64,000 nt of DNA, taken from positions 149,741 to 213,740 of the forward strand of contig JBDRKW010000006.1 of NCBI GenBank assembly GCA_043813585.1, given 5' to 3'. The position numbers and the translations under genes are program-made. The notes under the pieces were generated by a model. The model saw only the letters and a list, made by a program, of their open reading frames with translations, did no database searches and was not told the DNA's origin. Numbering within the stretch: position 1 is the stretch's first letter; the number at the start of each line of letters is the position of its first letter. Positions 1,768-56,663 of this stretch are shown piece after piece. This stretch comes from Candidatus Kerfeldbacteria bacterium. Its GTDB lineage: Bacteria; Patescibacteriota; Patescibacteriia; UBA9570; XYC2-FULL-38-9.

Positions 1768-1805
1768 AATTGTATTATACCGTCCCTGGCCGTGTCACAC
1801 AATAC

Positions 1806-1834
1806 AAAAAAAGGCCCGTATCGGGCCTTTTTTC
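1806..1834. terminator. Bidirectional rho-independent terminator after the major pilin gene
   Basis: aaaaaaaGGCCCGtatCGGGCCttttttt is a perfect 6-bp GC stem flanked by A- and T-runs. Confidence 0.6.
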
Positions 1835-1850
1835 AAGTAGTGTACGTATT

Positions 1851-2354: not shown

Positions 2355-2443
2355 CGCGTTGTTTTCTTAACGTTTATCTTATTAATTAAAGTCAGAATAT
2401 ATTGTACCATATTTTAAGCAAAGGTGCAAAAAGCTTTTCAACA

Positions 2444-3646: not shown

Positions 3647-3657
3647 AAACGACGTTG

Positions 3658-4719: not shown

Positions 4720-4727
4720 AGTTGCGC

Positions 4728-7402: not shown

Positions 7403-8100
7403 TGAACTCCGGTTTGTTCTACCGTCGTACCAGGGTGAAGGAAATACGTCTGAAGCTGCAATGCATAGCTGGCGGATCCCGGTGAAAACGTCAGGTTCTG
7501 CAGATCCAGGATCGGGACAAATGACTCCAGCGTATCCAGAAACAGCTTCAATTCCTCATAGGTCCCCTCACCGCTCTCAATATTCAGCGTAATGGTGGCC
7601 GTACGAACATCCTTGCTTGTAAACTTCGACGCCTCACCCGCAATCGTTCCGGCATCTGTTATAGTCGCTTCCGCTACCGGCTCCGGCTTCACAACGTCTA
7701 TGCTTAAAATCGCCAGGCCGGCCTGCTCTGCCAGCGCGCTCATCCGGTTAATCACCGAAGCGGGCTCAAGTCCAACCGGCAACAGATGATCCATCTGCTG
7801 CAGCCGTTCTTCCGACAACTTGGAATATTCTGTTTCCATTGTCTGCAGCTGCAACAAGTAGTTCTCGCGCTCCTGCAGCCGCGCACTCGTATCCTCATAA
7901 CCTATCAGTCCGGCTTCCTCAATTTTCGTCAATTCCTTGTCGAGTAACACAAACCATCCAACCACCAGAATCAGCACCGCCTCAAGCGCAACAAACCATA
8001 AATAATATTTCGAGATAAACTCGACCACGGCGCCGGCTATTTTTTTCAGGTTAATCTGCATTGCCATATGATCGCGGGTGTGAAAAAAGTGACGGGTCAA
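7399..8100 (-). CDS. pilO: PilO-like pilus assembly protein
   Basis: Single N-terminal TM helix, a coiled-coil and a C-terminal α/β domain. Its position after the PilN-like gene supports the call. Confidence 0.55.
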   Translation of the reverse strand: MTRHFFHTRDHMAMQINLKKIAGAVVEFISKYYLWFVALEAVLILVVGWFVLLDKELTKIEEAGLIGYEDTSARLQERENYLLQLQTMETEYSKLSEERLQQMDHLLPVGLEPASVINRMSALAEQAGLAILSIDVVKPEPVAEATITDAGTIAGEASKFTSKDVRTATITLNIESGEGTYEELKLFLDTLESFVPILDLQNLTFSPGSASYALQLQTYFLHPGTTVEQTGVQ

Positions 8101-9385: not shown

Positions 9386-9394
9386 TTAGGAATG

Positions 9395-10534
9395 TTATCC
9401 GATTTCACGCATTGCTAGGCCGACCGCGACCGACATGCGCGGACCGATGCTTTGTAATACCGGTTTCATCTCCATTGGGTACATCACGCGCGCCCACGGA
9501 TCGCCGATAAAAACCTTCACGCCAAGAACATTGCTTAAGTATTGCGTAATGTTTGGCAGCCAGGCAGATCCGCCGGCCAGCACGATCTTCTCAACGCTGC
9601 CGCTGCCCTGGCTCTGGTAGAGGTTCAGAACATATTTCACTTCATTTACCACGGACGAAACCATGAACTCAATCCGTTTTGGAATCTGGTTGCCCGTGCC
9701 GGCCTGTTCCACCAAGCCGAAGTCGCGCTTGAACTGTTCAGCGCGGTCGGCGTCTATATTCAGGCTGTTTGCAATCGCTTTGGTGATGGTGTGGCCGCCG
9801 ATATCAATGCTGCGGTTAATCAGCGGCACCGAATCAACAACAATGCTGATCGTGGTCGCCACCGCGCCCATGTCAATCAGCATTATCGGGGACTTATCAT
9901 TTCCTATGAGCGCACGTTCCAGAGCAAAACTCTCCGTTTCAAGGCTCACCAGGTTCAACTTGGCCGCTTTGAAAATTTCCAGGTACCGTGATACCAGGTC
10001 TTTTGGCGCTGCTGTGAGCAGTATTTTCAAAAATTTCTTAGACTTGCCTTCAATTTTTGCCTGGCTTGGCTGGCCGGCAGCCTGCTGGCCAGGGCCCTGT
10101 TGTCCCGGCTCCTGCCCGGCGTTTGCCGCAAATGCAGTTTCAATGTCAGCATCCTCCAAAATCTTCCAATCCAGGATCATCTCCTCAATCGGCATAGGCA
10201 CGAACTTTTTCGCTTCCCAATTCACTGCAGAAACCAGCTCTTTTTTCGGCATTTCAGGCAGGTGGATTATGGAAGTAAAAACAGTGTAGCTCGGAAGCGC
10301 TGCAACAGCGTTCGTGGACGTTGTCCTGGAATCCTTCTGTATTTTTTCGAGCGCTGCGATGATATTATCCTTGGCCTCCTTGCTTGCCGACGTCAGGATT
10401 TCATTCGATTGTTCCAGGTAGCCGTACGTCAACAGCTTTGGCCGGCCTTTAAAATTCTCTAGCTCCACGAGCTTTACTGCGGAATTGCCAATATCTATTC
10501 CCAAGTAACTCTCGTTTGATCCAAATAGTGCCAT
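9395..10534 (-). CDS. pilM: Type IV pilus assembly ATPase-fold protein PilM (actin-like)
   Basis: LGIDIGNSAVKLVEL actin/FtsA-like phosphate-1 motif with a Q/P/G-rich insertion. The likely start is Met at 10534; the ORF extends to 10612. Confidence 0.8.
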   Translation of the reverse strand: MALFGSNESYLGIDIGNSAVKLVELENFKGRPKLLTYGYLEQSNEILTSASKEAKDNIIAALEKIQKDSRTTSTNAVAALPSYTVFTSIIHLPEMPKKELVSAVNWEAKKFVPMPIEEMILDWKILEDADIETAFAANAGQEPGQQGPGQQAAGQPSQAKIEGKSKKFLKILLTAAPKDLVSRYLEIFKAAKLNLVSLETESFALERALIGNDKSPIMLIDMGAVATTISIVVDSVPLINRSIDIGGHTITKAIANSLNIDADRAEQFKRDFGLVEQAGTGNQIPKRIEFMVSSVVNEVKYVLNLYQSQGSGSVEKIVLAGGSAWLPNITQYLSNVLGVKVFIGDPWARVMYPMEMKPVLQSIGPRMSVAVGLAMREIG

Positions 10535-10637
10535 ATGCAAAACATTAATAAAATCAAAGGGAAAAATCCCGTAGATGTAGTAAATTATAACATCTTTTAG
10601 ACGCTTGTGCAACGAGTTCTACACAGGCCTTAATGCG

Positions 10638-14574: not shown

Positions 14575-14821
14575 AAAAATCGGGTTATGAACCCGATCAG
14601 CATAGAGGAATATTCATTTTGTTGCAATACGTCTGGCTTTACCGCCCGTTTCCCATTTCTCTGAAGCGAATGCTCGTTTCGCATCAGAGAGACGGGGCCG
14701 GGCCACTGCAGATCGTGTAGATTGCAGGGCCCGGCTTGAACTTCGTTCGTCCGTCGGTGCGCCGTGGTAGCGTGGCGCCGTTGCCACCGGCTTGCAGACC
14801 GGCGTTAAGCTCGGTTGTGCG

Positions 14822-15073
14822 CTAGCCGTTGAGGCCGCGCACGAACTGATCGGTGTCGACCGTGTCGCCGTCGGAGACCATCATCGGGGCGTAGGCGCCC
14901 ATGACGGGGGTCTTGACGAACTGCATGCGGATGCTGTCGACCAGGTCTGCCAACGCGTCGCGGACGTGGTCCACGGCCTTCTCGACCAGCGGGGTACCCG
15001 CAGGTGCGAAGCGGCCGATGACGGCGATGGCGAGGATGGACAGGACGACGAAGTTCGGGTTGGAGAGGCTCAT
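14822..15073 (-). CDS. Small (83 aa) hypothetical protein with an N-terminal hydrophobic helix; GC-rich
   Basis: About 65% GC in a roughly 50% GC context. A strong SD (AAGGGGG) lies 6 nt upstream of the ATG. Confidence 0.45.
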   Translation of the reverse strand: MSLSNPNFVVLSILAIAVIGRFAPAGTPLVEKAVDHVRDALADLVDSIRMQFVKTPVMGAYAPMMVSDGDTVDTDQFVRGLNG

Positions 15074-15443
15074 AATGGCCCCCTTTCGTAATCAGTCGTG
15101 TGCGCAGTCTCCCGGAGGACAAGCTCCCGCGGGAAACATTGCAACTTGTGTAGAACGACTGCTCGGTAGCGGTAGGGATGCATTTTGCTTTCAGCAAAAA
15201 ACGCAGTTCCCTCCCTTCACAGAGCAGCTGTCCTCAAGTGCTTAATTATTTCTCTCTCACTCTTATATACTCTCTCCTGCTCTTATTGCACAAATCTGTA
15301 CAAAAGAACGAAACAGCATAGCGCACTTTTGCTGTTTTGTCAAGAGTAAAAGACGGGATATTCGCTAATTTTAGCGAAACGATATATATGTTGGTTACCC
15401 TAGCAAAATGAAAAACAGCGATGAATTCAGCTCATGAACACCA

Positions 15444-15472
15444 TTGACAAAAGCCTTTTTTCATGATATCCT
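15444..15472 (+). promoter_or_regulatory. Sigma70-type promoter (TTGACA-17-TGaTATCCT extended -10)
   Basis: TTGACA at 15444-15449, 17-nt spacer, TG-extended -10 at 15464-15472. It lies upstream of the small membrane-protein gene. Confidence 0.4.
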
Positions 15473-15536
15473 ACTTGGTCTTTTACTCGAGGAGAGAGTT
15501 TCGAGGGAGGACAGCACCTTTGGAAGGAGAAACGTC

Positions 15537-15842
15537 ATGAACACGGTTTCCAAGACCATCCGTATCTGCACCAGCTTCGCGCTAGTGATCCTCGGCTACA
15601 TCCTGCTTCACAACATTTACGCCCACATCGATGCGATCATCGGCTGCATCTCGGCGTACGACGTGGAGCCGAGCTACACGCACGAATGGATCACTCGCGC
15701 GCTGATCTGGCACGTCAAGGAGTACGTCTTCGTGAATGGAGTGACCTGCTACCTGTTGATCGGCACGCTGATCATCAGGATGAACGCACGACGACTCTCT
15801 ACTGAACTCTTCCGTCTTGGGGAGGAATATAGGGAGGCATAG
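15537..15842 (+). CDS. Small (101 aa) two-TM membrane protein, unknown function
   Basis: Strong SD GGAAGGAG 6 nt before the ATG. Two hydrophobic helices and an RMNARRLSTELFRLGEEYREA tail. Confidence 0.5.
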   Translation: MNTVSKTIRICTSFALVILGYILLHNIYAHIDAIIGCISAYDVEPSYTHEWITRALIWHVKEYVFVNGVTCYLLIGTLIIRMNARRLSTELFRLGEEYREA

Positions 15843-15935
15843 AGGTGCTAGGGGGACGAACCGCAAGCGCGATTCAGGGTGGAGACGACACGTCACCGCC
15901 CACCCCCCAGTTCCTGTGACTGCAACTCGATTGTA

Positions 15936-16500
15936 GCCAGAGGAATGAAGCTCCCCGGGCTCACGCCCGGGGTATCTTTATACCCATACAAACTTCGTTT
16001 GTCCTTTGTCCTCTTTACCTTGCTGCTCTATATATTTTTCGATAGTATTTCTGTTGACTCCGACGGTAGAGACAAAATAGCCATCTGACCATATTCCCAT
16101 CTTGTCGTTCTCGTACATATGGCTAAGGAAAGGAAACTGCGTTCTCATGGCCTTTGCACTATTGCTTTTAAGAGTACGTACGATATCAGAAACAGCGTAT
16201 TTTGGAGGAATGACTAGAAGGAGATGGATATGGTCTTCATCCGTATTCATTTCAATAAGTTCAATATCAGGTTGTGTGTTGAGTATATTTTTTATAGTGG
16301 CCATGAGATACGCTCCCATGCCTTGTTTGAGTATCTTTCTTCTATATTTGGTGACAAAGACAAGATGGTATTGTGTATAGTAAATACTGTGCGCTTGTTT
16401 GCGGTATGCGATTGGTTCACTCATACTGTGAACATACCACGCTGCGGTAAAGAGGCCAAAGGCACAGCAAGGAACCCCGGGCTCACGCCCGGGGTATTGA
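15936..16500 (-). mobile_element. IS200/IS605-family insertion sequence (tnpA only)
   Basis: The identical perfect palindrome CCCCGGGCtcacGCCCGGGG occurs at both ends (15953-15972 and 16475-16494), flanking a Y1/HuH transposase gene. Confidence 0.75.
15978..16424 (-). CDS. tnpA: IS200/IS605 family transposase TnpA (Y1 HuH)
   Basis: YHLVFVTKYRRKIL and HIHLLLVIPP (HuH) motifs in a roughly 148-aa protein. Real start MSEPIAY at 16424. Confidence 0.85.
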   Translation of the reverse strand: MSEPIAYRKQAHSIYYTQYHLVFVTKYRRKILKQGMGAYLMATIKNILNTQPDIELIEMNTDEDHIHLLLVIPPKYAVSDIVRTLKSNSAKAMRTQFPFLSHMYENDKMGIWSDGYFVSTVGVNRNTIEKYIEQQGKEDKGQTKFVWV

Positions 16501-16515
16501 CTCCGTACACAAAAA

Positions 16516-16545
16516 GAATCCCGCACTAAACGGGATTCTTTTTAT
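16516..16545. terminator. Hairpin and T-run (bidirectional terminator candidate)
   Basis: GAATCCCGcactaaaCGGGATTCttttt. Confidence 0.45.
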
Positions 16546-16552
16546 ATATACT

Positions 16553-16915
16553 CTATTTCAGGATAACCTCATGATCCGGGCACCACGCCGGATCGACAAT
16601 GCATAAAAACTTCAAATCAATATCTCCGGTGTTCTCGATAAATTGCGTCGCGTTCGGCGGAATGGAGATCACACACCCGGGACCAACCAGTTCAGTCTCA
16701 TCGCCTATTGTCATCTTCCCCTCGCCTTCCAAAATATAATAGACCTCCGACACGCTCAACGTGTGCGGTGCAGAAACGTCGCCCGGCTTCACGACCGCGT
16801 GCGCCAAGCTATATCTAAAATCCTCATCTGACTTATCCGCATGAAGAAGCTCACGCAAAATCGTATTGTCCCCGGCAATAAATTCTTCGCACTCGTCCAG
16901 CTTTCGAATAAACAT
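16553..16915 (-). CDS. Cupin domain protein
   Basis: Conserved-barrel motifs (G(X)5HXH-like HAVVKPGDVSAPHTL ... PPNATQFIENTGD). Start at MFIRKLDE, 4 nt after the folD stop. Confidence 0.6.
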   Translation of the reverse strand: MFIRKLDECEEFIAGDNTILRELLHADKSDEDFRYSLAHAVVKPGDVSAPHTLSVSEVYYILEGEGKMTIGDETELVGPGCVISIPPNATQFIENTGDIDLKFLCIVDPAWCPDHEVILK

Positions 16916-16919
16916 AATT

Positions 16920-17795
16920 CTACTTATCGCCGGTAAATCCTTCAATTCGCCGCATCGCAAGCCAGGTATTCTGCAACAGCGACACAACTGTCATCGGCCC
17001 AACGCCTCCCGGCACCGGGGTAATAAATCCTGCTTTGTCAGCAACCTCTTCCAGGGCCACGTCTCCGACAACCTGTCCTTTGTGACGGCTGATCCCGGCA
17101 TCAATCACCATCGCGCCCTCTGCAATCATATCCGCGGTAATCAAATTCGGAACGCCCGTGGCAGTTATCAGAATATCCGCTTGCTGCGTATGCGCTGCCA
17201 GATCTTCAGTGAGCTTGTGGCATATCGTTACAGTCGCGCCTTTGTTCAGAAACAACGCGGCTGTCGGTTTGCCCACGATATTGCTCGCACCTACCATCAC
17301 CACATGTTTGCCACGAATATCCACGCGCGTTGATCGCACTAGCGTCCAGATTCCTTTTGTGGTTGCCGGCACAAAAAATGGCTCGCCCATATATAACCGC
17401 CCAATGTTATCCGGATGAAACCCATCCACGTCTTTCCACGGCGCCACCGCCTCCATAATCGTATTCGCATCAATATGGTCCGGCACAGGCATCTGCACCA
17501 GGATCCCGTGGATCTTCTTGTCCTTATTGAGTTTCTCTATAATCTTCAACACCTTATCCTGTTTGATGTCCTCCGGCAGCTCCACTGTCTCTAAATACAT
17601 GCCCACCTCTTCGGACGCCTGCGACTTGAACTTCACGTAAATCTTCGAAGCCGGATCATGCCCAACCAAAACCACGGCTAATCCCGGCCGCACATCCGAC
17701 TGTGCGATTTTATGCTTTAAATCAGCGCGAATCTGCGCCGCCATCCCCTTGCCGTTGAGGATCTTCGTTACATGTGATTGTTCTTTGTTTTCCAT
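16920..17795 (-). CDS. folD: Bifunctional methylenetetrahydrofolate dehydrogenase / methenyl-THF cyclohydrolase
   Basis: Full-length FolD-family protein (GKGMAAQIRADL..., GHDPASKIYV, NIVGKP motifs). Confidence 0.9.
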   Translation of the reverse strand: MENKEQSHVTKILNGKGMAAQIRADLKHKIAQSDVRPGLAVVLVGHDPASKIYVKFKSQASEEVGMYLETVELPEDIKQDKVLKIIEKLNKDKKIHGILVQMPVPDHIDANTIMEAVAPWKDVDGFHPDNIGRLYMGEPFFVPATTKGIWTLVRSTRVDIRGKHVVMVGASNIVGKPTAALFLNKGATVTICHKLTEDLAAHTQQADILITATGVPNLITADMIAEGAMVIDAGISRHKGQVVGDVALEEVADKAGFITPVPGGVGPMTVVSLLQNTWLAMRRIEGFTGDK

Positions 17796-19868: not shown

Positions 19869-19898
19869 TTGACAAATACACCCTTTTCAGCCTATAAT
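19869..19898 (+). promoter_or_regulatory. Near-consensus sigma70 promoter (TTGACA-18-TATAAT)
   Basis: TTGACA at 19869-19874 and TATAAT at 19893-19898. It is about 100 nt upstream of the LOG-like gene, which has SD AGGGGAGG. Confidence 0.5.
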
Positions 19899-19997: not shown

Positions 19998-20762
19998 ATG
20001 GCAAGCGGATATTGGAAGACAGACCCACACGCCGTCATGCAGAGCGAGTGGCTGCAGCACGGCACCTGGTCCTTCAGCGACAAGGTGCGCCGGTACGCTC
20101 AGTGGATTCGTCCACAGGTCGGCCCGATGATCGGCATCTTCGGCTCGGCACGCGACCCGGAGAAGGCGCCGAACCTGCACGCCAGGTACGCCAATCGCGC
20201 GACGGAGATCGGTCGGCTGCTCGGAGAGCGCGGCGCGTCGCTGATCAGCGGCCACTGCCCCGGCCTGCCGGAGCTGACCGAGAACGGGTTCAAGGCGGCG
20301 CGCATTAGCGACCGCAAGCAGCCCGTCATCGGAGTGCGCATCGTCATCACCAAGGACGGCGTGATCTTCGAGGAGACGGACCGGACCAAGGTGGATGTCT
20401 ACATCGAGTGTGATGATTTCGGTCCCAGGATCGAGATAATGGAAGCGCTCGCCGATGGCGCCATCTTCTGCCCCGGCGGCATCGGGACGCGCCTCGAATT
20501 GCAGCTGTTCATCCAGAAACAGCAGCTCGGCAGCTACCTGGGCCGGAAGATCCCGTTGGTTCTGGTCGGCACCTCGCACTGGGCCAAGATCCTCGACGAC
20601 TTCTCCGCCCAGCAAGAGGACGAGACAATCGGCTCCCACGAATTCTGGGTGACGGTCACCGACCACCCGGAGGAGGCAGTCGAACTGGTCCTCGGCGAGA
20701 ACGGCAACAGGGACCGCGCCGAGCGAATCCTGGTCGAGACCAGCGGCGACCTGAGCATATAA
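19998..20762 (+). CDS. LOG/SLOG-family Rossmann-fold protein (TIGR00730-like)
   Basis: IGIFGSARD and FCPGGIGTRLELQLF (PGGxGTxxE) signatures. About 64% GC with a strong SD. It has N- and C-terminal extensions relative to minimal LOG proteins. Confidence 0.7.
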   Translation: MASGYWKTDPHAVMQSEWLQHGTWSFSDKVRRYAQWIRPQVGPMIGIFGSARDPEKAPNLHARYANRATEIGRLLGERGASLISGHCPGLPELTENGFKAARISDRKQPVIGVRIVITKDGVIFEETDRTKVDVYIECDDFGPRIEIMEALADGAIFCPGGIGTRLELQLFIQKQQLGSYLGRKIPLVLVGTSHWAKILDDFSAQQEDETIGSHEFWVTVTDHPEEAVELVLGENGNRDRAERILVETSGDLSI

Positions 20763-47639: not shown

Positions 47640-47692
47640 GGGAAAAAGAATGTTGCATGTTCGGCTGTGTAATGTGTTACAATTGGTCGACT

Positions 47693-49897
47693 ATGCCAAA
47701 GAAAAAAGCCACAAAAAAGGCGAAACCAAAAAAATCTACCCCCAAAAAAAACACTGGACGTGTATCTAAGGGTGATTTGATATTGAAGGAGCTGAACGAA
47801 ATGCAGCGCGAGGCAGCCGAGGCCACAGAAGGCCCGGTGTTGGTGCTTGCCGGAGCCGGTTCGGGCAAAACGCGCACCCTGATCCACCGCACCGCCTACC
47901 TTATTGCAGAAAAAGGGGTGAAACCATGGACTATCCTCGCCGTTACCTTCACTAACAAAGCAGCGCAGAACATGAAGGAACGTATGTCCGCATTACTTGG
48001 CGACATGAAGCATACTCCCGTCATGGGCACGTTCCATTCCATCTGTGCCCGCCTGCTCCGCAAAGAGATCCCCGCGCTCGGTTTTGAACGCAATTTCGTG
48101 ATCTACGGTGATGACGACCAGAAAGGCCTGGTCAAGAAAATCATGAAAGAGATGGGATACGACACCAAGCAGATCCCCGCCAACTCTGTCCACTGGAAAA
48201 TCAGCAGCGCGAAAAACCTGCTTATCGGCCCGGAAGAGTTTGAACAACTCGTGGATGACCCTATCAGCGAAGTCGCGGCAAAGGTGTATCCCAAATACCA
48301 GGAAGAGCTGCACAAGGCCAACGCGCTGGATTTTGACGATTTAATAATGAAGACGGTCGAATTGTTCCAGCAATTCCCTGAAATCCTCGCCAAATACCAA
48401 AAGATGTGGAAGTACATTTTGGTGGACGAGTACCAGGACACGAACAAGGCGCAATACACGCTCGTCTCGCTGTTGGCAGACGACAACAAGAACATCTGTG
48501 TTGTGGGCGACGACTTTCAATCCATTTACAGCTGGCGCATGGCGGACATCCGAAACATCCTCGACTTTGAAAAGGACTACCCGGATGCGACCGTCGTCCT
48601 GCTCGAGCAGAACTACCGCTCCACCCAGACCATCCTGGACGCATCGAACGCAGTGATCGCCAAAAACAAGAACCAGAAAAAGAAAGTGCTCTGGACGGAA
48701 AATGACCTCGGCGAAAAAATAATCGTTAATGAAGTGGAGGACCAGGAAGCCGAAGGCCGGTTCATCGTGGAACAAATCATCAACATCGAAACCGGCGACG
48801 GGAAGGTAGCAGGCAGCAGCACGCCGGAACTGAAATACGAAAACGACGAATACGCGCAGCCCGACCCGGCCGACCAAGAAAACATGCAGCCGATCCAGGA
48901 GGGTGAAAGCATCCTGGAACGCGTGATGCGCTCCAAGATGTTCGAACAGAACCGCGAGGCGCAGGATTTACAGCAGAAAGTGGATGCCAACAAGAAAGCA
49001 ATCGACTTCTCGCGCTATGTGGTGCTCTACCGCACGAACGCGCAGTCCCGCGCAATTGAAGAAGCATTCCTCAAATACAACATCCCGTACAAAATCATCG
49101 GCGGCATCCGGTTTTACGAACGCATGGAGATCAAAGACGCCATCGCCTACCTTCGCGTCATGTTCAACCCGGCCGACTGGGTGGCGCTCGAACGCATCTC
49201 CAACACGCCGGCACGCGGCATCGGCGACCGCACCTGGATAAAAATCGAACAATTCGCCGCACAACGCGGATTCAACATAGTAGAAGCGGCAGGACAGGCC
49301 ATTCCCGACATCCAAAACGCGCGCTTGTCGGCGTTCTACCAGTTTGCAGAGATCATCAAGACCGTGCGCGACAAAATGGAAGAGCTGAACCCCACGGAGA
49401 TCCTGGATATGGTCCTCAAAGAGATCGGCTACAAGGAACACCTGTTCAACACCACGGAGACAAAGGAAAAAGCAGAGGCAAAATGGGAAAATGTGCAGGA
49501 GTTGAAGAATGTCACGCAGAAATTCGCGAACTTGCGCGGGGCAGAAGGGCTGGAAGCGTTCCTGGAAGAAGTCTCGCTCGTCATGGACCAGGACAACGTG
49601 GACGAATCAGAAAACGTCGTGAAGCTCATGACCGTGCATGCGGCCAAAGGGCTGGAATTTCCGGTAGTGTTCGTGGTTGGCATGGAAGAAGGGCTGTTCC
49701 CCCACTCGCGATCGCTCATTGACCCGAAAGAAATGGAAGAAGAACGCCGGCTGTGCTACGTGGCGCTCACCCGCGCGATCGAACGGGTATACCTGGTGCT
49801 CGCCAGCCAGCGTATGCGCTGGGGAAACGTGCAGGTAAACCCGCCGTCGCGCTTTATCGACGATATTCCGGACGAATTGATGATCTGGCTGCAATAG
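47693..49897 (+). CDS. pcrA: ATP-dependent DNA helicase PcrA/UvrD
   Basis: SF1 motifs (AGAGSGKT Walker A, DEYQDTN, C-terminal VALTRA). A basic N-terminal tail MPKKKATKKAKPKKS. TTGCAT..TACAAT promoter with the -10 9 nt before the ATG. Confidence 0.9.
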   Translation: MPKKKATKKAKPKKSTPKKNTGRVSKGDLILKELNEMQREAAEATEGPVLVLAGAGSGKTRTLIHRTAYLIAEKGVKPWTILAVTFTNKAAQNMKERMSALLGDMKHTPVMGTFHSICARLLRKEIPALGFERNFVIYGDDDQKGLVKKIMKEMGYDTKQIPANSVHWKISSAKNLLIGPEEFEQLVDDPISEVAAKVYPKYQEELHKANALDFDDLIMKTVELFQQFPEILAKYQKMWKYILVDEYQDTNKAQYTLVSLLADDNKNICVVGDDFQSIYSWRMADIRNILDFEKDYPDATVVLLEQNYRSTQTILDASNAVIAKNKNQKKKVLWTENDLGEKIIVNEVEDQEAEGRFIVEQIINIETGDGKVAGSSTPELKYENDEYAQPDPADQENMQPIQEGESILERVMRSKMFEQNREAQDLQQKVDANKKAIDFSRYVVLYRTNAQSRAIEEAFLKYNIPYKIIGGIRFYERMEIKDAIAYLRVMFNPADWVALERISNTPARGIGDRTWIKIEQFAAQRGFNIVEAAGQAIPDIQNARLSAFYQFAEIIKTVRDKMEELNPTEILDMVLKEIGYKEHLFNTTETKEKAEAKWENVQELKNVTQKFANLRGAEGLEAFLEEVSLVMDQDNVDESENVVKLMTVHAAKGLEFPVVFVVGMEEGLFPHSRSLIDPKEMEEERRLCYVALTRAIERVYLVLASQRMRWGNVQVNPPSRFIDDIPDELMIWLQ

Positions 49898-49922
49898 ATT
49901 GAAAAACGACATCGGAAGCTAT

Positions 49923-49950
49923 ACAGCGCCTATCAACGGCGCTTTTCTTG
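49923..49950 (+). terminator. Rho-independent terminator after pcrA
   Basis: AGCGCCtatcaacGGCGCTTTTCTT. Confidence 0.55.
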
Positions 49951-50080
49951 ACTTCTCTGCCTGATGCGGTAAGAAGGGTAGGTAAACCGGGCAGGAATAT
50001 GGCGGGTTTCGGGCTAATAGAGGCCCGGGGCTCAAACGATCATAGTGATCCGATTCCTGTTTGGTGCACGAGGAGAAATC

Positions 50081-51403
50081 ATGCCTAGTGGCGAAGAGGA
50101 CGCTCTGTCCAGACTTGTGACTGCTGCCGTCGACCCGTGGAAACGGACCGACAAGCACCACCTGAACCAGGGGTTGCTGGCGCTTGAAGGCAAGCACACC
50201 GACCTGCTGCCGAATGAACAGTTCAGGTGCCGGATTCCGGTGTCCGAAGGCGAGATCAAGACTGCGGTGTCCGAAGACGGCGCGGTCACAGTTGGTGGTT
50301 TGGACGATTCTGGCATGCACCAGCTGTTCGTGGCTGCGCCCGACAGCACTCGGTTCACGCCGGTGCTGAAACAGCCGGTCGGCGAGATCCGTGCGGTCTG
50401 CTTCCCAAGCGGCAGCAACCGACCGGCGTGCGTTGCCGGCGACGACTTCGACTCCTGGAGGGTCATCTGGGACGACTGGGAAGCGGTCTTCTCCGTGCCG
50501 GTCCGGACGTACCTGAACCCGTTCGCAACGCAGCAATGCTGGCTCACCTGCTGGATGGAAGACGGCCAAAAAAACGCATTCATCATGACGTACGGCATGT
50601 CCGAGATGCTGACGAAGAAACCTGATGGAACTGTCCGAATCACACACTACCCGAAAGGGGGCGCACGAGTCATCGGCGTATTCGACGGCAGTGCAGTTGT
50701 CATGCCGGACCGACGGCTGAACAAACCCATCACATACGGGGATTTCACACTCCCCAAGACGAGCGACTTCAACCGCCACCACGTCCAGGCGCATCCGGAG
50801 GGCGGCATCATCATGGTGGGCTTCGACCTCGACAGCACCACATCACCGTCCAACTTCATCGCCACCTCATTCAACAGGTCGATCAGGTACGTGGAGCAAG
50901 GAGGATTGTTCCTGGTCAACGGCGAAGTGTACAGCAACCATCTGACGGGGAATGATCCGCACAACCGGCAGAACACGGTGGTCTCGCTCGATGGCAGCTG
51001 GCAGACGAAGTCGTCAATCGCCGGAATCGCTGTACAGGGGTTCAGATACGGCGACGGTTCGCTTGCGGTCACCACGGGCCGGCTAGAGTCGCAGGTGTTG
51101 TGTCTCTTCGATCGGGACGGAAACAGTACGTTCGAGTACCGGATCGGAAGCGGGCACTTCACGCCCGACGGCCGCCTTCTCTTCCCGGGTGGATGGTACT
51201 ACCCGCAGACCTTCGCCGGCATGGAAGAGTCGATGCGGCGCACTCTCACCATAATGCCCATTCGCCTCGGGCAACGCTCACTCCACCAGATGACGCTCAT
51301 CAACGAAAACGAGCTTATGGGCATTCATCCGGTGGGCAACGGCCAGCTTGCGGTTCACCGCTGGCTGCCGATGGACCCGGACGTCGACCTGACGGTCGAG
51401 TAA
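50081..51403 (+). CDS. GC-rich hypothetical protein (440 aa), β-rich
   Basis: About 62% GC. SD GAGGAG 5 nt upstream of the ATG. No recognisable motifs. Confidence 0.5.
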   Translation: MPSGEEDALSRLVTAAVDPWKRTDKHHLNQGLLALEGKHTDLLPNEQFRCRIPVSEGEIKTAVSEDGAVTVGGLDDSGMHQLFVAAPDSTRFTPVLKQPVGEIRAVCFPSGSNRPACVAGDDFDSWRVIWDDWEAVFSVPVRTYLNPFATQQCWLTCWMEDGQKNAFIMTYGMSEMLTKKPDGTVRITHYPKGGARVIGVFDGSAVVMPDRRLNKPITYGDFTLPKTSDFNRHHVQAHPEGGIIMVGFDLDSTTSPSNFIATSFNRSIRYVEQGGLFLVNGEVYSNHLTGNDPHNRQNTVVSLDGSWQTKSSIAGIAVQGFRYGDGSLAVTTGRLESQVLCLFDRDGNSTFEYRIGSGHFTPDGRLLFPGGWYYPQTFAGMEESMRRTLTIMPIRLGQRSLHQMTLINENELMGIHPVGNGQLAVHRWLPMDPDVDLTVE

Positions 51404-51540
51404 CGTCCACACCGAACTACGGTTCGGTCCTTTTTTTACGCGGGCTTGCACGGTTCCGGGAAATCGGTTATACTATTGCCCAGTGCACGACACTTCGTCT
51501 CACCCTTTTTTAAAAAATCCATAATATATTTTGAGGAGTA

Positions 51541-51968
51541 TGGCAGCCAAAAAAAAACCTACGAAAAAAAAGCCGGCAGCGAAAAAATCCGTAAAGAAAG
51601 CAACAACGGCAAAGAAGAAACCGGCTGCAAGGAAAAAAGCTCCTACGAAAAAGAAAGCGACAAAACGCGGGTCCTCTGCCCCGAAAAAACCAACTGTCCT
51701 GAAAAGCGAAATCCTGGAAACCATCGACAGCTTTACTGACGTGGAAACGCCGCAGATGGAAACCACGCCGGAAACACCGCAGGCAACAGAAAAAGTATTT
51801 ACCTTCACGCACGTTGGCGAATTCTTTCTGGCGATCGTCATGCTCTCGCTCGTTTTCCTGACCGCCCTGTACTGGATCATCAGCGTCAGCCAGCCGGCCC
51901 TGTTTTCACAGATCGACAGCCGCGGAGGCATCTGCTCCATCCAGGAGACGCTTGCGCTCAAGCAATAG
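51541..51968 (+). CDS. Histone-H1-like basic (AKK/KKP-repeat) N-terminal domain fused to a single TM helix
   Basis: MAAKKKPTKKKPAAKKSVKKATTAKKKPAARKKAPTKKKATKR followed by FFLAIVMLSLVFLTALYWIISV. An intrinsic terminator follows. Confidence 0.5.
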
Positions 51969-52041: not shown

Positions 52042-52728
52042 TCATCTGCGCAGCCTTCTCTTGATGTCATCCAGTTGGATGACATGAGCTGACGCCGATG
52101 ATGCCGGCATCGTTGTTTTTCCCGTGGTTCCTCCCATGGCGTAGACGAGCGCATGCTCGTCCTTCTCGTCCTCCTTGTCGTCGTCGCCGTCCGGGTTCAC
52201 GTCCGAAACCGCGTAGTAGGTGTCGCGGTCGATCTGGACCATGAAGGTTCCTGTCTCGTCGTAGACGAGGGTGCGGTCGGGGGTTCGCGGCGATGCGATG
52301 GTGCGGTCAGAGGTCTGCATGAGGATGCGCCGCTGGGTGCGCCACCTGTTGTAGTTGTCCAGCGCCGCCTGGAACCCGGGCGCGGAGCGCGTCGACGGGA
52401 ACCTTGGGGCGTCCTCGGTCCAGTTGACGTCGGCGTAGAACGGGATCAGCGTCTCGCTGTAGAGCAGGACATCGGCGCTGCCGTTGCCGTTGTCCCTGAC
52501 CTGCAGACGAAATCCCGACTTGGTGCCCAGCGTGAACTGGACGTCGTTGTCCAGTATGAACTTCCCGGCCGGGAAGCTCCTGTACGAGAACGTGATGCGA
52601 ACCCATGCGTAGAGCAGCCGGATCTGGAGCAGTTCCAGCTTCTCGATCATGGGTAGTGGCCGCACCCGCCGCAAAGCAGGTGTGTTCGTTGCCCGCACTC
52701 GGGTCAACGGCTTTTTCCAGCGGTCCAT
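52042..52728 (-). CDS. GC-rich hypothetical protein (about 228 aa)
   Basis: About 62% GC. The likely start is the second Met (MDRWKK), which has GGAGGT 5 nt upstream. An acidic DGDDDKEDEKDE stretch and an RRLRR tail. Confidence 0.45.
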   Translation of the reverse strand: MDRWKKPLTRVRATNTPALRRVRPLPMIEKLELLQIRLLYAWVRITFSYRSFPAGKFILDNDVQFTLGTKSGFRLQVRDNGNGSADVLLYSETLIPFYADVNWTEDAPRFPSTRSAPGFQAALDNYNRWRTQRRILMQTSDRTIASPRTPDRTLVYDETGTFMVQIDRDTYYAVSDVNPDGDDDKEDEKDEHALVYAMGGTTGKTTMPASSASAHVIQLDDIKRRLRR

Positions 52729-52947
52729 TCTGACCTCCATAGCGTTCCCTGACGGAACACTTTGGTTGGGATTGTCGATGTCCGTTGCCCAAGGCGGATT
52801 ATAAGAGTATATCCGCCCGCCCCCTCCCGGGGGCCACGTGCTGTGTGGGACTAGTCACCCTACAACATAAATTCGCCATTTGTCAAGCCATAACTGTTAA
52901 TACCGAAAATGCAGGTCACGCCCGTATATCTGCCCATATTCCAGGCA

Positions 52948-52976
52948 TTGACAAAACGCGTTGACTGACCTATAAT
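52948..52976 (+). promoter_or_regulatory. Perfect-consensus sigma70 promoter TTGACA-17-TATAAT
   Basis: TTGACA at 52948-52953, a 17-nt spacer and TATAAT at 52971-52976. It is about 45 nt upstream of the 659-aa acidic protein gene. Confidence 0.6.
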
Positions 52977-53019
52977 AACGCGTTAAAATAAGCATGTATT
53001 AGCCAAATAAATACTTTTT

Positions 53020-54999
53020 ATGCCAGAACCCAAAGGAATCCCAATTGGTCCCGCAAAGGCCGAAGCACGCCCAACGCCAGTACCGGTCAAACCGGGTGAA
53101 AGAGAAGTGCCTCCGATTACCCGCGAGGACCTGAAAGTTGTCCGGGGAGATGGCGGCGGGGAGATGGCGGCAGAACCGCAGGGCGATGACGCCTATGATC
53201 CCGCAAAAATGGAGCGGTATTATCCGGAAGATCTGTTGAATGTACTTGGCGCGAAGATCGAAGCGGCAACCGGCCAAAAAGTAAATCTGAAATACCAGGA
53301 ATTTACCCTGCAGGAAGCGGGCGGCAAACCGGGTGAAGCAAAAGCGGTTCGCAAAAACGGGGAACAGTATGCAAGCGAACTGATGCAGGCCATGACAAAA
53401 TCCGATAACAAACAGCTGGACGACTTCTACCTGTCGCGCTTTGAACCGGCGACCGACCAGGCGCTGGCGGCCAAACAGCCCCTCACTGAACAGCAGCTGG
53501 CGGCCGCAGTCGTGGCAGAAGCCGCGCGCATGGTTCATGACAACCCAAAAATACGCGAGGCGGTACTGGCAGCGCAGTTTGGTTTTACTTCCATTAATGA
53601 AATTTCAAAAGAATCACTGAATAAGAAGATAAACGATCTCTACGACGCGGAACGCGCAAAAGCCGGCGCTATGACCCCGGAGGTTGCGGCAAAGCTGCAA
53701 TCCTTTATGGATTGGCAGGAACGGCTGGAAGGCATGTTGCTTGATGCGCATGAAAAAGCGGAAAAACTTCGCGGCGAGGCGGCAGAATTGGTTGAAGAGA
53801 TAAAACTGCCGGAGCTGGATATTGAACCAATGGCAATGCCGGAGATTCCCAAAGCCGAATTAAAAGCGGAAGACCTGGAAGCAATAACGGAAACGCCGGC
53901 CGAAGCGCGCGGACGCATTGAACAGCTCCGCATAGCGCTGGACGCAGAGCTGGGCGCAACCCGCTTTGAAGAACGCGGCGTCTGGAGCCGTTTGAAAAAT
54001 ATTGCCACTGAACTGAAAGGCGCGCGCGCCAAGCAGGGCAAGCTGCGCGACCAGCTGAAACAGCTGGACCGGTTTAGCGCTGAAATGAACGATAACAACT
54101 ACAAAGAATACATGGCAAAGATGGATGCGATGCAATCCATGATGGCTGAACAGTTTGAAATCAAGACGCTCCCGGAACTGCGCCCCATAGAAGCAGCAAC
54201 AGAAGCGCCTGCTGCAGAACTCCCGCCGGAACAACAGCCGGCCACAGCAGAAGAAGAAAAAGAGCGCATGATGATCTCTGCGGAAATTGCGGATATTATC
54301 GGCATAGACCAGCCGGAGCAGGCGGCGGCGGAAGAGGAATTCTTCTCCACCGGAGCGCGCGAAACCAAGCCGGCGGCTGAAACAGATATGCCGATTGACG
54401 CGAAGGCAGTGGCAAACCTCCAGCAGCTGGAATACGGCGACCTTGAAATGATGCTCAAGCAGGTGGAGGGCCAGATGGGCGCTGAAAAAGGCGATGCGCT
54501 CAAAGCGCTGCAGATGCGCGAATCGGCGATTACCGAAGCAATGCGTACGCATCCGAGCAATGAAGGCGCGCTGAAGGCAGAAGCGGCTGCGGAAGAGGAT
54601 GAAGACATCCCGCCGACCGAACAGGCGCTTGACCTCGGGCAGCAGCCCGTGGAGCGCGTCCCTATGACCAAGCTGAAAGCGGAATACAAAGAATTTGATA
54701 CCAACGATGTGACCATTGAAGAACAGAAGATCCTGCAGGAATTTGATTTGGATACGCAATTCCTCACCGAAAAATCGATGGACGACCCGGAACGAACAAC
54801 AAAGATGCTGGTTGCGATGAAAACGCGCATCAATGAAAAAGCTGCAGAAATGAAAACGGAACTAAAAGCATCCGGCGTGACCGACCAAAAAGAAATTGAC
54901 GAGCAGGTCGGCGCATACACAGAACGGCTGTATGAGATGTATGACCGCATGTACGTGCTGGAACAACTGCCGAGACCGGAACGCATGAAAGACAAATAG
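53020..54999 (+). CDS. Large (659 aa) acidic, E/A/K/Q-rich, predicted coiled-coil protein of unknown function
   Basis: Long uninterrupted ORF driven by a consensus promoter and ending at a strong terminator. No TM or enzymatic motifs. Confidence 0.55.
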   Translation: MPEPKGIPIGPAKAEARPTPVPVKPGEREVPPITREDLKVVRGDGGGEMAAEPQGDDAYDPAKMERYYPEDLLNVLGAKIEAATGQKVNLKYQEFTLQEAGGKPGEAKAVRKNGEQYASELMQAMTKSDNKQLDDFYLSRFEPATDQALAAKQPLTEQQLAAAVVAEAARMVHDNPKIREAVLAAQFGFTSINEISKESLNKKINDLYDAERAKAGAMTPEVAAKLQSFMDWQERLEGMLLDAHEKAEKLRGEAAELVEEIKLPELDIEPMAMPEIPKAELKAEDLEAITETPAEARGRIEQLRIALDAELGATRFEERGVWSRLKNIATELKGARAKQGKLRDQLKQLDRFSAEMNDNNYKEYMAKMDAMQSMMAEQFEIKTLPELRPIEAATEAPAAELPPEQQPATAEEEKERMMISAEIADIIGIDQPEQAAAEEEFFSTGARETKPAAETDMPIDAKAVANLQQLEYGDLEMMLKQVEGQMGAEKGDALKALQMRESAITEAMRTHPSNEGALKAEAAAEEDEDIPPTEQALDLGQQPVERVPMTKLKAEYKEFDTNDVTIEEQKILQEFDLDTQFLTEKSMDDPERTTKMLVAMKTRINEKAAEMKTELKASGVTDQKEIDEQVGAYTERLYEMYDRMYVLEQLPRPERMKDK

Positions 55000-55015: not shown

Positions 55016-55047
55016 CGAAAAAACCGGCATTCCTGCCGGTTTTTTTC
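55016..55047. terminator. Bidirectional rho-independent terminator between the convergent acidic-protein gene and uvrC
   Basis: aaaaaaCCGGCAttccTGCCGGttttttt. Confidence 0.6.
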
Positions 55048-56663
55048 TACACCATCCCTTTGAGGTGGCGTTTGCGGTAAAATCCGATGGCAAAACGGTG
55101 CGCCTCATCGCGCATGCGCTGTACTAAATATAATCCTTCTGAGTTGCGTTTTAATAATACTGATTGCGATTCGCCCGGTATAAATATCTCTTCCTCGCGC
55201 TTGGCAAGGGATATTAACGGGATCTTCAGGCCGGTCGCGTCCAAAATCGCCTTCACAGCATTTAACTGCGGTTTGCCGCCGTCAACAATAATCAGGTCCG
55301 GCCGCGGCCAGGGCTGGGTGCTGCCTTTCACCTTTTTGGGCAGGTGCCGAACGCGGCGCGAAACGATCTCCTGCAGCGACGCTACGTCATTTGCGCCAAC
55401 CACGCCTTTGATCTTGAACTTCCGGTATTCAACCGGCTCCGCAAGCCCATCCTTAAACACCACCATCGACCCGACCGAATACTTTCCCTGGATATTCGAG
55501 ATATCATAAATTTCAATGCGGCCGAGCTTGGCAGCATCCAGCCCGATGGCCGCGGCAAGCTCCGTCAACCCCTTCTTCGCGCGCTCGTCATGCTTTTCAA
55601 ACGACGCCTTCTGCCGCTTCAGCGCCTCCCCGGCATTCTCGATGCCCATCTCCAGCATTTTCTTGTGCCTGCCGCGTCGGGACTCGATGCTCAAATAGAC
55701 ATTCTTCGGAACCGACTCGGTCTGCGCATAATACTGGTCTGCAAACGCCCCCAGCACGTCATCGTCGCTCTGGTCGCGCGTGTGCTTCAGGAAAAACACC
55801 TCCTGGTGGATCATCTTCCCACGCCGCACCACAAACAGATTCACCGCCGCCGTCCCGTCCATGCGCGCCAGCGACAGATAATCGGCATCTTCCTGCCGCG
55901 GCGACACCACCTTCTGCTTCACCATTAACTTATCGATCGAAAGCAGCTGGTCGCGCAGCTGCGCCGCCTTTTCAAACTGCTTCAAATCAGACGCACGAAC
56001 CATCTCCCGCTCTACATACGCGCGCACCGGTTCATAATCCCCGCGCAAGAACTGTTCGATCTGTTTAAACACTGCCCGGTACTCGTCCGCACTGATCACA
56101 TCCGCGCACGGGCCCAAACAACGCCCCATCTGGTAATCCAGACACGGCCGCTTTGGGAACACGACCTTCCCGCGCACTTCCCGCGGCGGCGACGTACAGA
56201 TATGGAACAGCTGCTTCATCAGCCGCATGGCGCGCTTCACCGCAAACCCAGAAATGTACGGGCCAAAATACTTCCCGCTCCGCCCGCGCAGCGGAATCTT
56301 CCGCGTCGTTTCCAGCACCGGGTACTTGTCATCTGTTATATGGATATACTGGAAATTCTTGTCGTCCTTCATCACGATGTTGAACGGCGGCTTGTACTTC
56401 TTGATCAGCGTCGTCTCCAACAACAGCGCCTCCGACTCGTTATCAACCACCGTCACCGCAACATCCGCAACAGAACGAACCATCACGCGCTTGGCATCGG
56501 ACAAATCGGCAGAATCGCGGAAATACGACAGCACGCGTGAACGCAAATTCGTCGCCTTACCTATATATAAGAGATGCTTGTCCACATCCAAAAACTGGTA
56601 CACGCCGGGTTTTGCCGGCAGGGACCGCACCTTTTCCATCAATTTTTTGCGAACGTCAGCCAT
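55047..56663 (-). CDS. uvrC: Excinuclease ABC subunit C
   Basis: GIY-YIG (GVYQFLD..LLYIGKATNLRSR), UvrBC, RNase H-like endonuclease and (HhH)2 domains. Confidence 0.9.
   Translation of the reverse strand: MADVRKKLMEKVRSLPAKPGVYQFLDVDKHLLYIGKATNLRSRVLSYFRDSADLSDAKRVMVRSVADVAVTVVDNESEALLLETTLIKKYKPPFNIVMKDDKNFQYIHITDDKYPVLETTRKIPLRGRSGKYFGPYISGFAVKRAMRLMKQLFHICTSPPREVRGKVVFPKRPCLDYQMGRCLGPCADVISADEYRAVFKQIEQFLRGDYEPVRAYVEREMVRASDLKQFEKAAQLRDQLLSIDKLMVKQKVVSPRQEDADYLSLARMDGTAAVNLFVVRRGKMIHQEVFFLKHTRDQSDDDVLGAFADQYYAQTESVPKNVYLSIESRRGRHKKMLEMGIENAGEALKRQKASFEKHDERAKKGLTELAAAIGLDAAKLGRIEIYDISNIQGKYSVGSMVVFKDGLAEPVEYRKFKIKGVVGANDVASLQEIVSRRVRHLPKKVKGSTQPWPRPDLIIVDGGKPQLNAVKAILDATGLKIPLISLAKREEEIFIPGESQSVLLKRNSEGLYLVQRMRDEAHRFAIGFYRKRHLKGMV

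Follow-up and report, generated by a model that had tools for sequence, protein, structure and literature searches.

A 659-aa acidic protein of a Candidatus Kerfeldbacteria MAG (CPR/Patescibacteria), encoded at a chromosomal locus in the 64,000-nucleotide stretch of DNA that was analysed as a whole (the window), is composed of conserved modules ('beads') that alternate with acidic, Pro/Glu/Ala-rich disordered linkers free to vary in length. From this architecture, the protein is tentatively proposed to be an abundant, fast-evolving, non-enzymatic modular scaffold or adaptor of the cytoplasm. An earlier note on this DNA, made from the sequence, had listed several candidate roles; a non-enzymatic scaffold-type function is still the best guess among them, but the continuous filament or rod form and the partition-like origin that it also considered were abandoned.

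Gene structure and coding potential

The gene is a genuine monocistronic transcription unit, consisting of a promoter, a leader without Shine-Dalgarno (SD) sequence, an open reading frame (ORF) and a terminator (Table 1). The ORF announced in the earlier note was retrieved: it is intact on the plus strand (53020-54999) and displays a coding signal along its full length, with a codon usage-based coding score of +0.60 in the CDS frame versus at most 0.03 in the remaining five frames, and with positive scores in the CDS frame for all 100-codon windows. Its codon bias is an exaggerated form of the preferred (major) codons of the genome. The ATG at 53020 is favoured as the start codon, because residues 1-13 share 54% identity with the only relative found, P0002 (see below). 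Antisense to the CDS, long overlapping ORFs of 299 and 305 aa occur, as could be expected if the 659-aa frame were spurious, i.e. a chance frame in Glu/Ala-codon-rich DNA, or if the antisense frames were the real ones. This is extremely unlikely, as the coding score of the plus-strand frame is far higher, the ortholog keeps both the modules and the start, and at either locus it is precisely this ORF that lies between promoter and terminator.

Table 1. Features of the locus encoding the 659-aa acidic protein (positions in the window; L001, ortholog locus)
Feature	Position	Strand	Remarks
Divergent promoter-like block of the upstream minus-strand gene	52857..52886	-	TTGACA (52886 to 52881), 18 nt, TAGGGT (52862 to 52857)
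P1, -35 hexamer TTGACA	52948..52953	+	Exact match; same in L001 (1436-1441)
P2, TTGACT-17-TAAAAT, overlapping promoter-like sequence	52961..52989	+	10/12 in promoter scan; 13 nt 3' of P1
P1, -10 hexamer TATAAT	52971..52976	+	Exact match, 17-nt spacer; same in L001 (1459-1464), spacing also 17 nt
5' leader, about 36 nt	52983..53019	+	A/U-rich, unstructured; start inferred from the -10 position
CDS of the acidic protein	53020..54999 (stop included)	+	659 aa; NCBI MFH1426277.1; locus tag ABIG66_02480; annotated as 'hypothetical protein'
N-terminal folded domain, aa 67-260	53218..53799	+	Helix, beta-hairpin, six helices; about 195 aa
Acidic Pro/Glu/Ala linker 1, aa 261-292	53800..53895	+	pLDDT <50; variable length
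Central helical module, aa 293-380	53896..54159	+	Helices 293-324, 329-354 and 358-379; motif RGRIxQLRxALDAEL...EERGxWxR
C-terminal helical domain, aa 549-650	54664..54969	+	pLDDT 70-83 (full-length model); ends in a helical hairpin
Bidirectional intrinsic terminator	55017..55046		A-tract, CCGGCA-TTCC-TGCCGG, T-tract; common to convergent uvrC (stop 55047-55049)

Promoter region and leader

The perfect sigma70 consensus that had been reported upstream of the gene (TTGACA-17-TATAAT; P1, 52948-52976) was confirmed, both hexamers and the spacer being exact. P1 matches the consensus at 12 of 12 positions, is intergenic, faces the gene, and is located 43 nt 5' of its ATG. It is unlikely to have arisen by chance, since the base composition predicts only about 0.005 exact matches in a window. 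The additional claim that it is the only perfect consensus in the window is correct for a 17-nt spacer, but a TTGACA-18-TATAAT sequence is present at 19869 on the plus strand. This second perfect consensus is situated 5' of a LOG-family gene.

The TTGACT hexamer of P2 is located within the spacer of P1, and its position is kept at the ortholog locus (L001), where the sequence reads TTGACT-17-TATTAT; this embedded, conserved hexamer represents either a tandem promoter (P2) or a protein-binding repeat. Indeed, the whole layout (TTGACA-7-TTGACT-4-TATAAT) is kept in L001, with all 18 bases of TTGACA, TTGACT and TATAAT as well as their spacing being identical in this one comparison locus, versus identities of 61% at the four-fold degenerate positions in the neighbouring uvrC gene and 53% for the entire intergenic region. 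Measured against this baseline from a single comparison locus, the promoter elements appear to be conserved beyond neutral expectation. By its canonical consensus, P1 would fit a sigma-70-type housekeeping promoter, albeit in a lineage of which the own housekeeping sigma factor is uncharacterised. It shares with canonical sigma-70 promoters the exact -35 and -10 hexamers, the optimal 17-nt spacer and its preservation in the ortholog, but it differs from them by the lack of an A/T-rich UP element and a TG extension and by the extra TTGACT in its spacer.

Folding of the leader was not better than that of shuffled sequences (z = +0.97) and no SD sequence was found in it; the leader in L001 is similar (about 35 nt), likewise without SD. 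An SD sequence is absent from most genes in this genome. As suggested by its promoter, the gene is plausibly transcribed and expressed at a high level. A perfect consensus promoter need not give the highest output, as promoter escape can become limiting in Escherichia coli.

Terminator and genomic neighbourhood

The hairpin of the strong shared terminator (55017-55046) was missed by a simple terminator scan; its fold energy is -23.3 kcal/mol (z = -6.65), and an analogous hairpin of different sequence occurs at the same place in L001. At the opposite end, the divergent block (52857-52886) displays identical runs of 17/17 and 10/10 bases between the window and L001, and probably acts as the promoter of the minus-strand hypothetical gene, which encodes a 228-aa protein. 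Synteny shared by both loci comprises a K-rich TM gene, this minus-strand hypothetical gene, uvrC, and uvrA. The conserved neighbourhood includes uvrD, uvrC, uvrA, and the gene for a Lys-rich tail-anchored membrane protein (51531-51968), the latter being two genes upstream of the 659-aa gene. The window also holds a type IV pilus cluster. The intergenic region gave no match in an Rfam search, and the PADLOC anti-phage defence models matched neither the 659-aa protein nor six neighbouring hypothetical proteins.

Being an orphan with a strong promoter and a GC3 (0.58) below that of its immediate neighbours (0.71-0.83), the gene could have been acquired from a mobile element (phage or plasmid), for instance as a partition or scaffold protein. 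This origin is very unlikely, as the GC3 falls inside the window range (0.43-0.87), the codon preferences are like those of the genome, the flanks are housekeeping genes in conserved synteny, and neither an integrase nor repeats were found at the locus, the nearest transposase being 36 kb away. Furthermore, contrary to what holds for ParA, ParB, ParM, ParR, or phage scaffold proteins, no PHROGs or Pfam match was obtained and no relative was found in phage, plasmid, or IMG/VR records. The phage or plasmid partition-like protein suggested earlier hence finds no support, its gene residing in chromosomal synteny beside uvrC and uvrA.

Relatives and sequence divergence

When 1.84 billion representative proteins were searched exhaustively with HMMER, a single relative emerged, P0002 (743 aa), which is collinear with the 659-aa protein over its full length (33% identity, E = 4e-46). 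Judged from these two known sequences, the family is tiny and fast-evolving, and the protein appears to be a lineage-restricted orphan. Two word-indexed protein searches returned the query alone, and a third, with the 100-aa central module, returned nothing, the query included; the word prefilter of such searches is overwhelmed by the low-complexity composition, and therefore HMMER was relied on. Exact-sequence look-ups with the 659-aa protein and with the UvrC of the window retrieved no entry. Back-translated peptide patterns, scanned against GTDB species genomes, JGI metagenomes, and IMG/VR, did not retrieve any relative, and a 23-base conserved intergenic DNA pattern gave no match in GTDB genomes or JGI metagenomes. 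Comparison with Pfam, NCBIfam, PHROGs, PADLOC, and PDB sequences, by single sequence and by profile, resulted only in sub-threshold matches with cwf21, RoaM, and a response regulator; in Pfam, nothing apart from cwf21 was found at E <= 0.1. Literature searches on Kerfeldbacteria and on CPR proteomics retrieved no mention of the protein. The homologue search proposed in the earlier note thus revealed P0002 as the single relative and no homologue of known function, such as an SMC fragment, and this sole ortholog is intact.

At the ortholog locus, the identity of the 659-aa protein (33%) contrasts with that of the flanking UvrC (77%). Such a divergence fits exposure to a host or to phages; together with the strong promoter, the episymbiotic nature of CPR bacteria, and the type IV pilus cluster in the window, it could point to a host- or environment-facing protein that is exported by a non-classical route and diverges rapidly under arms-race selection. 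This is improbable, as a Sec, Tat, lipoprotein, or prepilin-type N-terminus was not found, hydrophobic segments are wholly absent, and secretion genes are not adjacent. In addition, disordered linkers diverge fast even without an arms race.

Protein composition and architecture

The protein has a pI of 4.64 and a net charge of -48 (-58 in P0002), and contains no Cys. Its maximal hydropathy over 19 residues is only 0.64, indicating that a transmembrane segment is absent, in agreement with the earlier note. Searches for a signal peptide, LPXTG, and a P-loop were negative. The stated absence of enzymatic motifs held as well, as neither an enzymatic nor any other family match was obtained (Pfam, NCBIfam, PHROGs, PDB, PADLOC). 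In contrast, the share of Glu, Ala, Lys, and Gln had been underestimated at 25-30%: these residues sum to 41%, Glu and Ala alone accounting for 27.6%.

Along the chain, 40 Pro and 33 Gly are distributed, with a Pro about every 16 residues on average, and no internal repeats were found. AlphaFold2 predicted 18 helices (56% of the residues), the longest comprising 40 aa, and five disordered stretches (aa 1-66, 260-292, 380-410, 427-460, and 526-548), constituting the acidic linkers; the full-length model of this two-sequence family was poor (pLDDT 50). Above-random heptad a/d hydrophobicity was found for four of the nine helices of at least 21 aa (220-259, 329-354, 358-379, and 623-649), for instance with an a/d hydrophobic occupancy of 0.88 versus a shuffle mean of 0.62 for helix 623-649 (P = 0.014). 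A coiled coil throughout, as had been claimed, is not supported by the predicted structure, given the 40 Pro, the helices of at most 40 aa, and the five disordered acidic linkers.

The beads comprise a conserved N-terminal peptide, the N-domain, the central module with its three helices, and another two helical modules, which end in the C-terminal helical hairpin. The N-domain was modelled confidently, and its predicted structure matches no solved fold; the Foldseek comparison of the AlphaFold model with the PDB, which had been recommended in the earlier note, gave nothing below E = 0.5. Linker 1 illustrates the variation in length, encompassing 32 aa (net charge -6) in the protein studied and 117 aa (-25) in P0002. 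The central module is, in contrast to this linker, 88 aa long in both proteins, without indel and with 52% identity; it is Arg-rich, the best conserved part, and the sole part that is not acidic (net charge +1 versus 0 in P0002). The C-terminal hairpin combines its heptad pattern with a conserved MYDR motif.

The strongly negative charge of both proteins, the Arg-rich, best conserved central module, and the conserved neighbours uvrD, uvrC, uvrA, and the Lys-rich tail-anchored protein would be consistent with a polyanion that partners or chaperones basic or nucleic acid-binding proteins, resembling a DNA mimic or histone chaperone and perhaps tied to the Uvr proteins or to the Lys-rich protein. 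The probability of this function is low, as the co-location with uvr genes concerns just two related genomes and separate, partly convergent transcription units, and similarity to known chaperones or mimics was not found. Moreover, the DNA mimics known so far are compact proteins of small size.

Comparison with known systems

The 659-aa protein was compared with several known cytoplasmic and filamentous proteins. With crescentin, FilP/Scy, DivIVA, and M proteins, the protein shares a helical, Glu/Ala/Lys/Leu-rich composition and some heptad-patterned helices. This composition, the helical share of 56%, and the four heptad-patterned helices could indicate a long coiled-coil filament former, either cytoskeletal (crescentin/FilP/DivIVA-like) or an M-like fibril. 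Such a filament is unlikely, as the protein lacks an uninterrupted rod (about 80 aa or more), internal repeats, and a family match (in Pfam, nothing but the cwf21 match mentioned above), the Pro residues and disordered linkers interrupt its chain, and no PDB structure approached it in the Foldseek comparison. An M-like protein would, in addition, require a signal peptide and a wall anchor (LPXTG), which are both absent. The M-like or cytoskeletal filament put forward earlier is hence unsupported. Resemblance to SMC, MukB, and Rad50 is limited to long helical segments; an ABC-type ATPase head (Walker A/B and signature motif) with a coiled-coil arm and hinge was not found. An SMC fragment was rejected, with no profile or PDB sequence match and no P-loop seen. 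The readings as M-like fibril, partition protein, prophage gene, or spurious ORF were rejected as well.

PopZ of the Alphaproteobacteria, a non-enzymatic polar organising hub of the cytoplasm, consists of about 180 aa, with a single acidic, Pro/Glu/Ala-rich disordered spacer between short, conserved helical modules that mediate interaction and oligomerisation. The 659-aa protein is 3.7 times longer, possesses several linkers and an N-domain with a beta-hairpin, and has no Pfam match. Similarly, P65 of Mycoplasma pneumoniae contains a disordered region and short coiled-coil segments, and forms a multimer in the core of the attachment organelle (PMC11940719). By analogy, the protein would share with P65 its long disorder and short helical segments, a non-enzymatic and cytoplasmic nature, and its occurrence in genome-reduced, host-attached bacteria. 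It differs by alternating several folded or helical modules with several linkers, the layout of P65 being a single disordered region and then a single coiled-coil block. Sequence or profile similarity was not found (Pfam, same threshold); the analogy is purely functional. HMW1 and P200 are further core proteins of this organelle, and the disordered regions of these mycoplasma proteins are acidic and Pro-rich. An attachment organelle is not known from Kerfeldbacteria. By analogy, the layout of acidic, Pro-rich spacers and short conserved helical modules in a cytoplasmic, non-enzymatic protein thus appears PopZ/P65-like, as far as composition, linker-length variation, and module conservation are concerned, oligomerisation being putative.

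Proposed mode of action and biological significance

The 659-aa protein would be produced at a high level, stay in the cytoplasm, and function as a scaffold, adaptor, or spacer without enzymatic activity. By means of short helical bundles, its conserved modules may engage partners or self-associate, and the acidic linkers may serve as flexible, self-repelling tethers; the Lys-rich tail-anchored membrane protein, which is co-conserved, might, speculatively, be such a partner. Extending this further, the 659-aa protein, the Lys-rich tail-anchored protein, and the product of the divergent hypothetical gene might form a clade-specific structural module, i.e. an abundant, polyanionic, membrane-tethered scaffold at the inner face, organising the cell pole, the host-contact site, or the nucleoid. 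This extension is a long shot; if true, the CPR, as ultra-small episymbionts, would have an equivalent of the terminal-organelle cytoskeleton of mycoplasmas, with a previously unseen fold.

With two family members only, the significance is currently local, not general. With its clean pair of conserved promoters, the locus is suited to the study of transcription and SD-less translation in these organisms. Many canonical cytoskeletal and organising proteins are absent from CPR/Patescibacteria, whose genes are to a large extent unannotated. A probably high abundance, the restriction to one lineage, a conserved maximal promoter, and a confidently modelled N-domain without match among solved folds make the 659-aa protein a candidate clade-specific structural component.

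Promoter, transcription unit and coding evidence

The gene coding for the 659-aa acidic protein is preceded by an exact sigma70 consensus, which is intergenic and oriented towards the start codon, an ATG that follows after 43 nt. Given the base composition, chance would yield about 0.005 exact TTGACA-17-TATAAT matches over both strands of 64 kb, or about 0.014 if spacers of 16-18 nt are counted. The earlier note's statement that it is the only perfect consensus in the window holds for the 17-nt spacer; a second one, with an 18-nt spacer, precedes a LOG/SLOG-family gene ('possible lysine decarboxylase'; 19998-20762). That LOG/SLOG-family gene has a GC3 of 0.87, the highest in the window, and a strong Shine-Dalgarno sequence (GGGGAGG); an antisense ORF of 267 aa overlaps it. 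At L001, the locus encoding the only relative found for the acidic protein (P0002, 743 aa), the upstream region (1436-1464) reads TTGACA-aatggct-TTGACT-catg-TATAAT and shares its architecture with the region in the window, which reads TTGACA-aaacgcg-TTGACT-gacc-TATAAT. All 18 hexamer bases (TTGACA, TTGACT and TATAAT) and every spacing are identical, against a baseline of 61% identity at uvrC four-fold degenerate sites and 53% over the whole intergenic region. The embedded TTGACT creates a second, overlapping promoter-like site (TTGACT-17-TAAAAT in the window, TTGACT-17-TATTAT at L001) and may represent a tandem promoter or, alternatively, a repeat bound by a protein.

The predicted 5' leader (about 36 nt here, about 35 nt at L001) is A/U-rich and lacks a Shine-Dalgarno sequence in both genomes, and no structure was found in that of the window. 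Such a leader is normal in this genome, because most genes of the window lack a Shine-Dalgarno sequence; in several, a TATAAT-like box lies 0-7 nt before the ATG, which suggests that leaderless or very-short-leader mRNAs may be frequent in this Kerfeldbacteria genome. The hairpin behind the gene, not picked up by a simple terminator scan of the window, also adjoins the stop codon of the convergent uvrC and is therefore a bidirectional terminator; in L001 the corresponding position is taken by a terminator hairpin with another sequence. Promoter, leader, single gene and terminator thus constitute a one-gene unit.

The codon-usage log-odds score, trained on the Pfam-confirmed genes of the window, was +0.60 in the frame of the gene, where it was positive in all 100-codon windows, and at most 0.03 in the remaining five frames; the antisense ORFs (299 and 305 aa) are therefore by-products of codon composition. 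A spurious ORF is effectively excluded. The product is identical to MFH1426277.1 (NCBI; 'MAG: hypothetical protein ABIG66_02480 [Candidatus Kerfeldbacteria bacterium]'). The preferred codons of the genome are exaggerated in this gene (GAA, 0.81 versus 0.62; CTG, 0.59 versus 0.42; CGC, 0.70 versus 0.54), a bias that is compatible with high expression and no proof of it.

Features of the window and of the acidic protein (aa, residues; identities are to P0002)
Feature	Position	Strand	Remarks
Type IV pilus cluster	988-10612	-	Prepilin peptidase, PilC-like T2SSF, two T2SSE ATPases, PilO-like, PilM-like
IS200-like Y1 transposase ORF	15978-16526	-	PF01797, E = 4e-32
Cupin-domain gene	16553-16987		Adjoins transposase ORF
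Second consensus, TTGACA-18-TATAAT	19869-19897	+	Upstream of 19998-20762
Example starts, window-wide Shine-Dalgarno/-10 pattern	1767(-), 19835(-), 33722(+), 43528(-), 60626(-), 62642(+)
uvrD	47657-49897		Near acidic-protein gene
Hypothetical gene, 452 aa, GTG start	50045-51403	+	Downstream of uvrD; no family match
Lys-rich protein, 145 aa	51531-51968 (L001 3-395)	+	Beside acidic-protein gene in both genomes
Hypothetical gene	52042-52740	-	Divergent from acidic-protein gene; synteny kept in L001
-35 hexamer TTGACA	52948-52953	+	Exact; 17-nt spacer to -10
-10 hexamer TATAAT	52971-52976	+	Exact
Acidic-protein ORF, 659 aa	53020-54999	+	ORF call, codon-usage score
Terminator hairpin	55017-55046		3' of stop codon; A-tract/CCGGCA-TTCC-TGCCGG/T-tract; -23.3 kcal/mol, z = -6.65
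uvrC, then uvrA	After acidic-protein gene	-, then +
N-terminal peptide	aa 1-13		54% identical; supports annotated start codon
N-domain	aa 67-260		30% identical
Linker 1	aa 261-292		32 aa, net -6; in P0002 117 aa, net -25
Central module	aa 293-380		52% identical; 88 aa in both, no indel
Fourth module	aa 461-525		43% identical over 455-512
C-terminal domain	aa 549-650		26% identical; pLDDT 70-83; conserved MYDR hairpin

Relatives and genomic context

The homologue search proposed in the earlier note, run exhaustively with HMMER over 1.84 billion cluster representatives, returned P0002 (E = 4e-46) as the only match besides the query. Both proteins are collinear over their entire length (33-35% identity). 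P0002 originates from two short Logan contigs with the gene order of the window, namely Lys-rich TM protein (+), hypothetical (-), homologue (+), uvrC (-) and the start of a + gene. Between the two genomes, identity is 77% for UvrC, 33% for the acidic protein and 25% (E = 4e-9) for the minus-strand neighbour. This comparison shows a real gene that is under selection and that evolves far faster than the housekeeping genes. Searches of GTDB species genomes, JGI metagenomes, IMG/VR, phage records and plasmid records brought up no additional relative, and the phage or plasmid partition-like role once considered finds no support there; a mobile-element origin is effectively excluded. The family is an orphan with two known members; its promoter is maximal and conserved, and its N-domain fold is unmatched.

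The window is ordinary chromosome, with genes for SHMT, FolD, PGM, iPGM, a MurD-like ligase, TrpRS/TyrRS and RNase J. Its type IV pilus cluster is typical for CPR episymbionts. Around the Y1 transposase ORF, about 2.3 kb (14575-16919) contain nothing else but short, unannotated ORFs. Downstream of uvrD, the 452-aa ORF has a weak coding score (0.16) and overlaps a 291-aa antisense ORF (49919-50794, -).

The divergent neighbour, for which a family search gave no match, probably starts at its second ATG (52728), which has GGAGG in front of it at a distance of 5 nt. Between the genomes, the divergent half of the intergenic region is kept (window 52819-52887, L001 1320-1389) and reads CTTGACAAAT-N6-TTTATGTTGTAGGGTGA on the minus strand, a possible promoter (-35 TTGACA, 18 nt, TAGGGT). 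Next comes a GC hairpin (GCCCCC-GGGA-GGGGGC, 52819-52834); its stem of 6 bp is lengthened on both arms in L001, to 7 bp. The region probably supplies this neighbour with its promoter and 5' UTR; an Rfam search of the intergenic region gave no match.

Predicted anatomy and possible function

The acidic nature of the protein was confirmed (pI 4.64, net charge -48, no Cys), as was the lack of a TM segment and of an enzymatic signature, according to sequence properties and family searches. One rival explanation is that the protein is a polyanion which partners basic proteins or proteins that bind nucleic acids. The Lys-rich neighbour has a histone-H1-like N-terminal half, rich in Lys, and looks tail-anchored, because its single TM segment is C-terminal; conservation between the genomes resides mainly in this segment and the C-terminal QPxxFxQ tail. 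A partnership with the acidic protein is conceivable, because the charges are opposite. The central module is the sole non-acidic part of the protein (net +1 here, 0 in P0002) and contains the motif RGRIxQLRxALDAEL..EERGxWxR.

A second rival, a filament-forming coiled coil, is close to the earlier view of a coiled coil throughout, which did not hold: 40 Pro and 33 Gly are distributed along the whole chain, and the AlphaFold2 model contains 18 helices of at most 40 aa (56% of residues helical), with low-confidence stretches between them (1-66, 260-292, 380-410, 427-460 and 526-548). A crude a/d-position test gave uncorrected shuffle P values of 0.014-0.057 for helices 220-259, 329-354, 358-379 and 623-649. 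Glu, Ala, Lys and Gln make up 41% of residues instead of the claimed 25-30% (Glu and Ala alone, 27.6%). Internal repeats were sought in the protein and none were found. Modelled alone, the N-domain reached a pLDDT of 81.6 and a pTM of 0.74 (best of five models), its predicted topology being a helix, a beta-hairpin and six helices.

Hence the flagged gene is real and its first interpretation was partly right. The analysis shows a monocistronic, chromosomal and lineage-restricted gene that is probably strongly promoted, with a putatively cytoplasmic, non-enzymatic, 'beads-on-a-string' product; an exported, host-facing protein is the third rival. An abundant scaffold or adaptor is a tentative reading, at somewhat less than even odds, in which the conserved modules would engage partners or self-associate, with the acidic linkers as flexible spacers of variable length. 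The nearest functional analogies are PopZ and mycoplasma attachment-organelle proteins such as P65. The latter is a multimer-forming protein with a disordered region and short coiled coils (PMC11940719). A Pfam search showed no homology of the acidic protein to PopZ or P65, so it may work like them and is not taken as a member of their families. Without pointing to a specific new mechanism, this family matters moderately for CPR cell biology.
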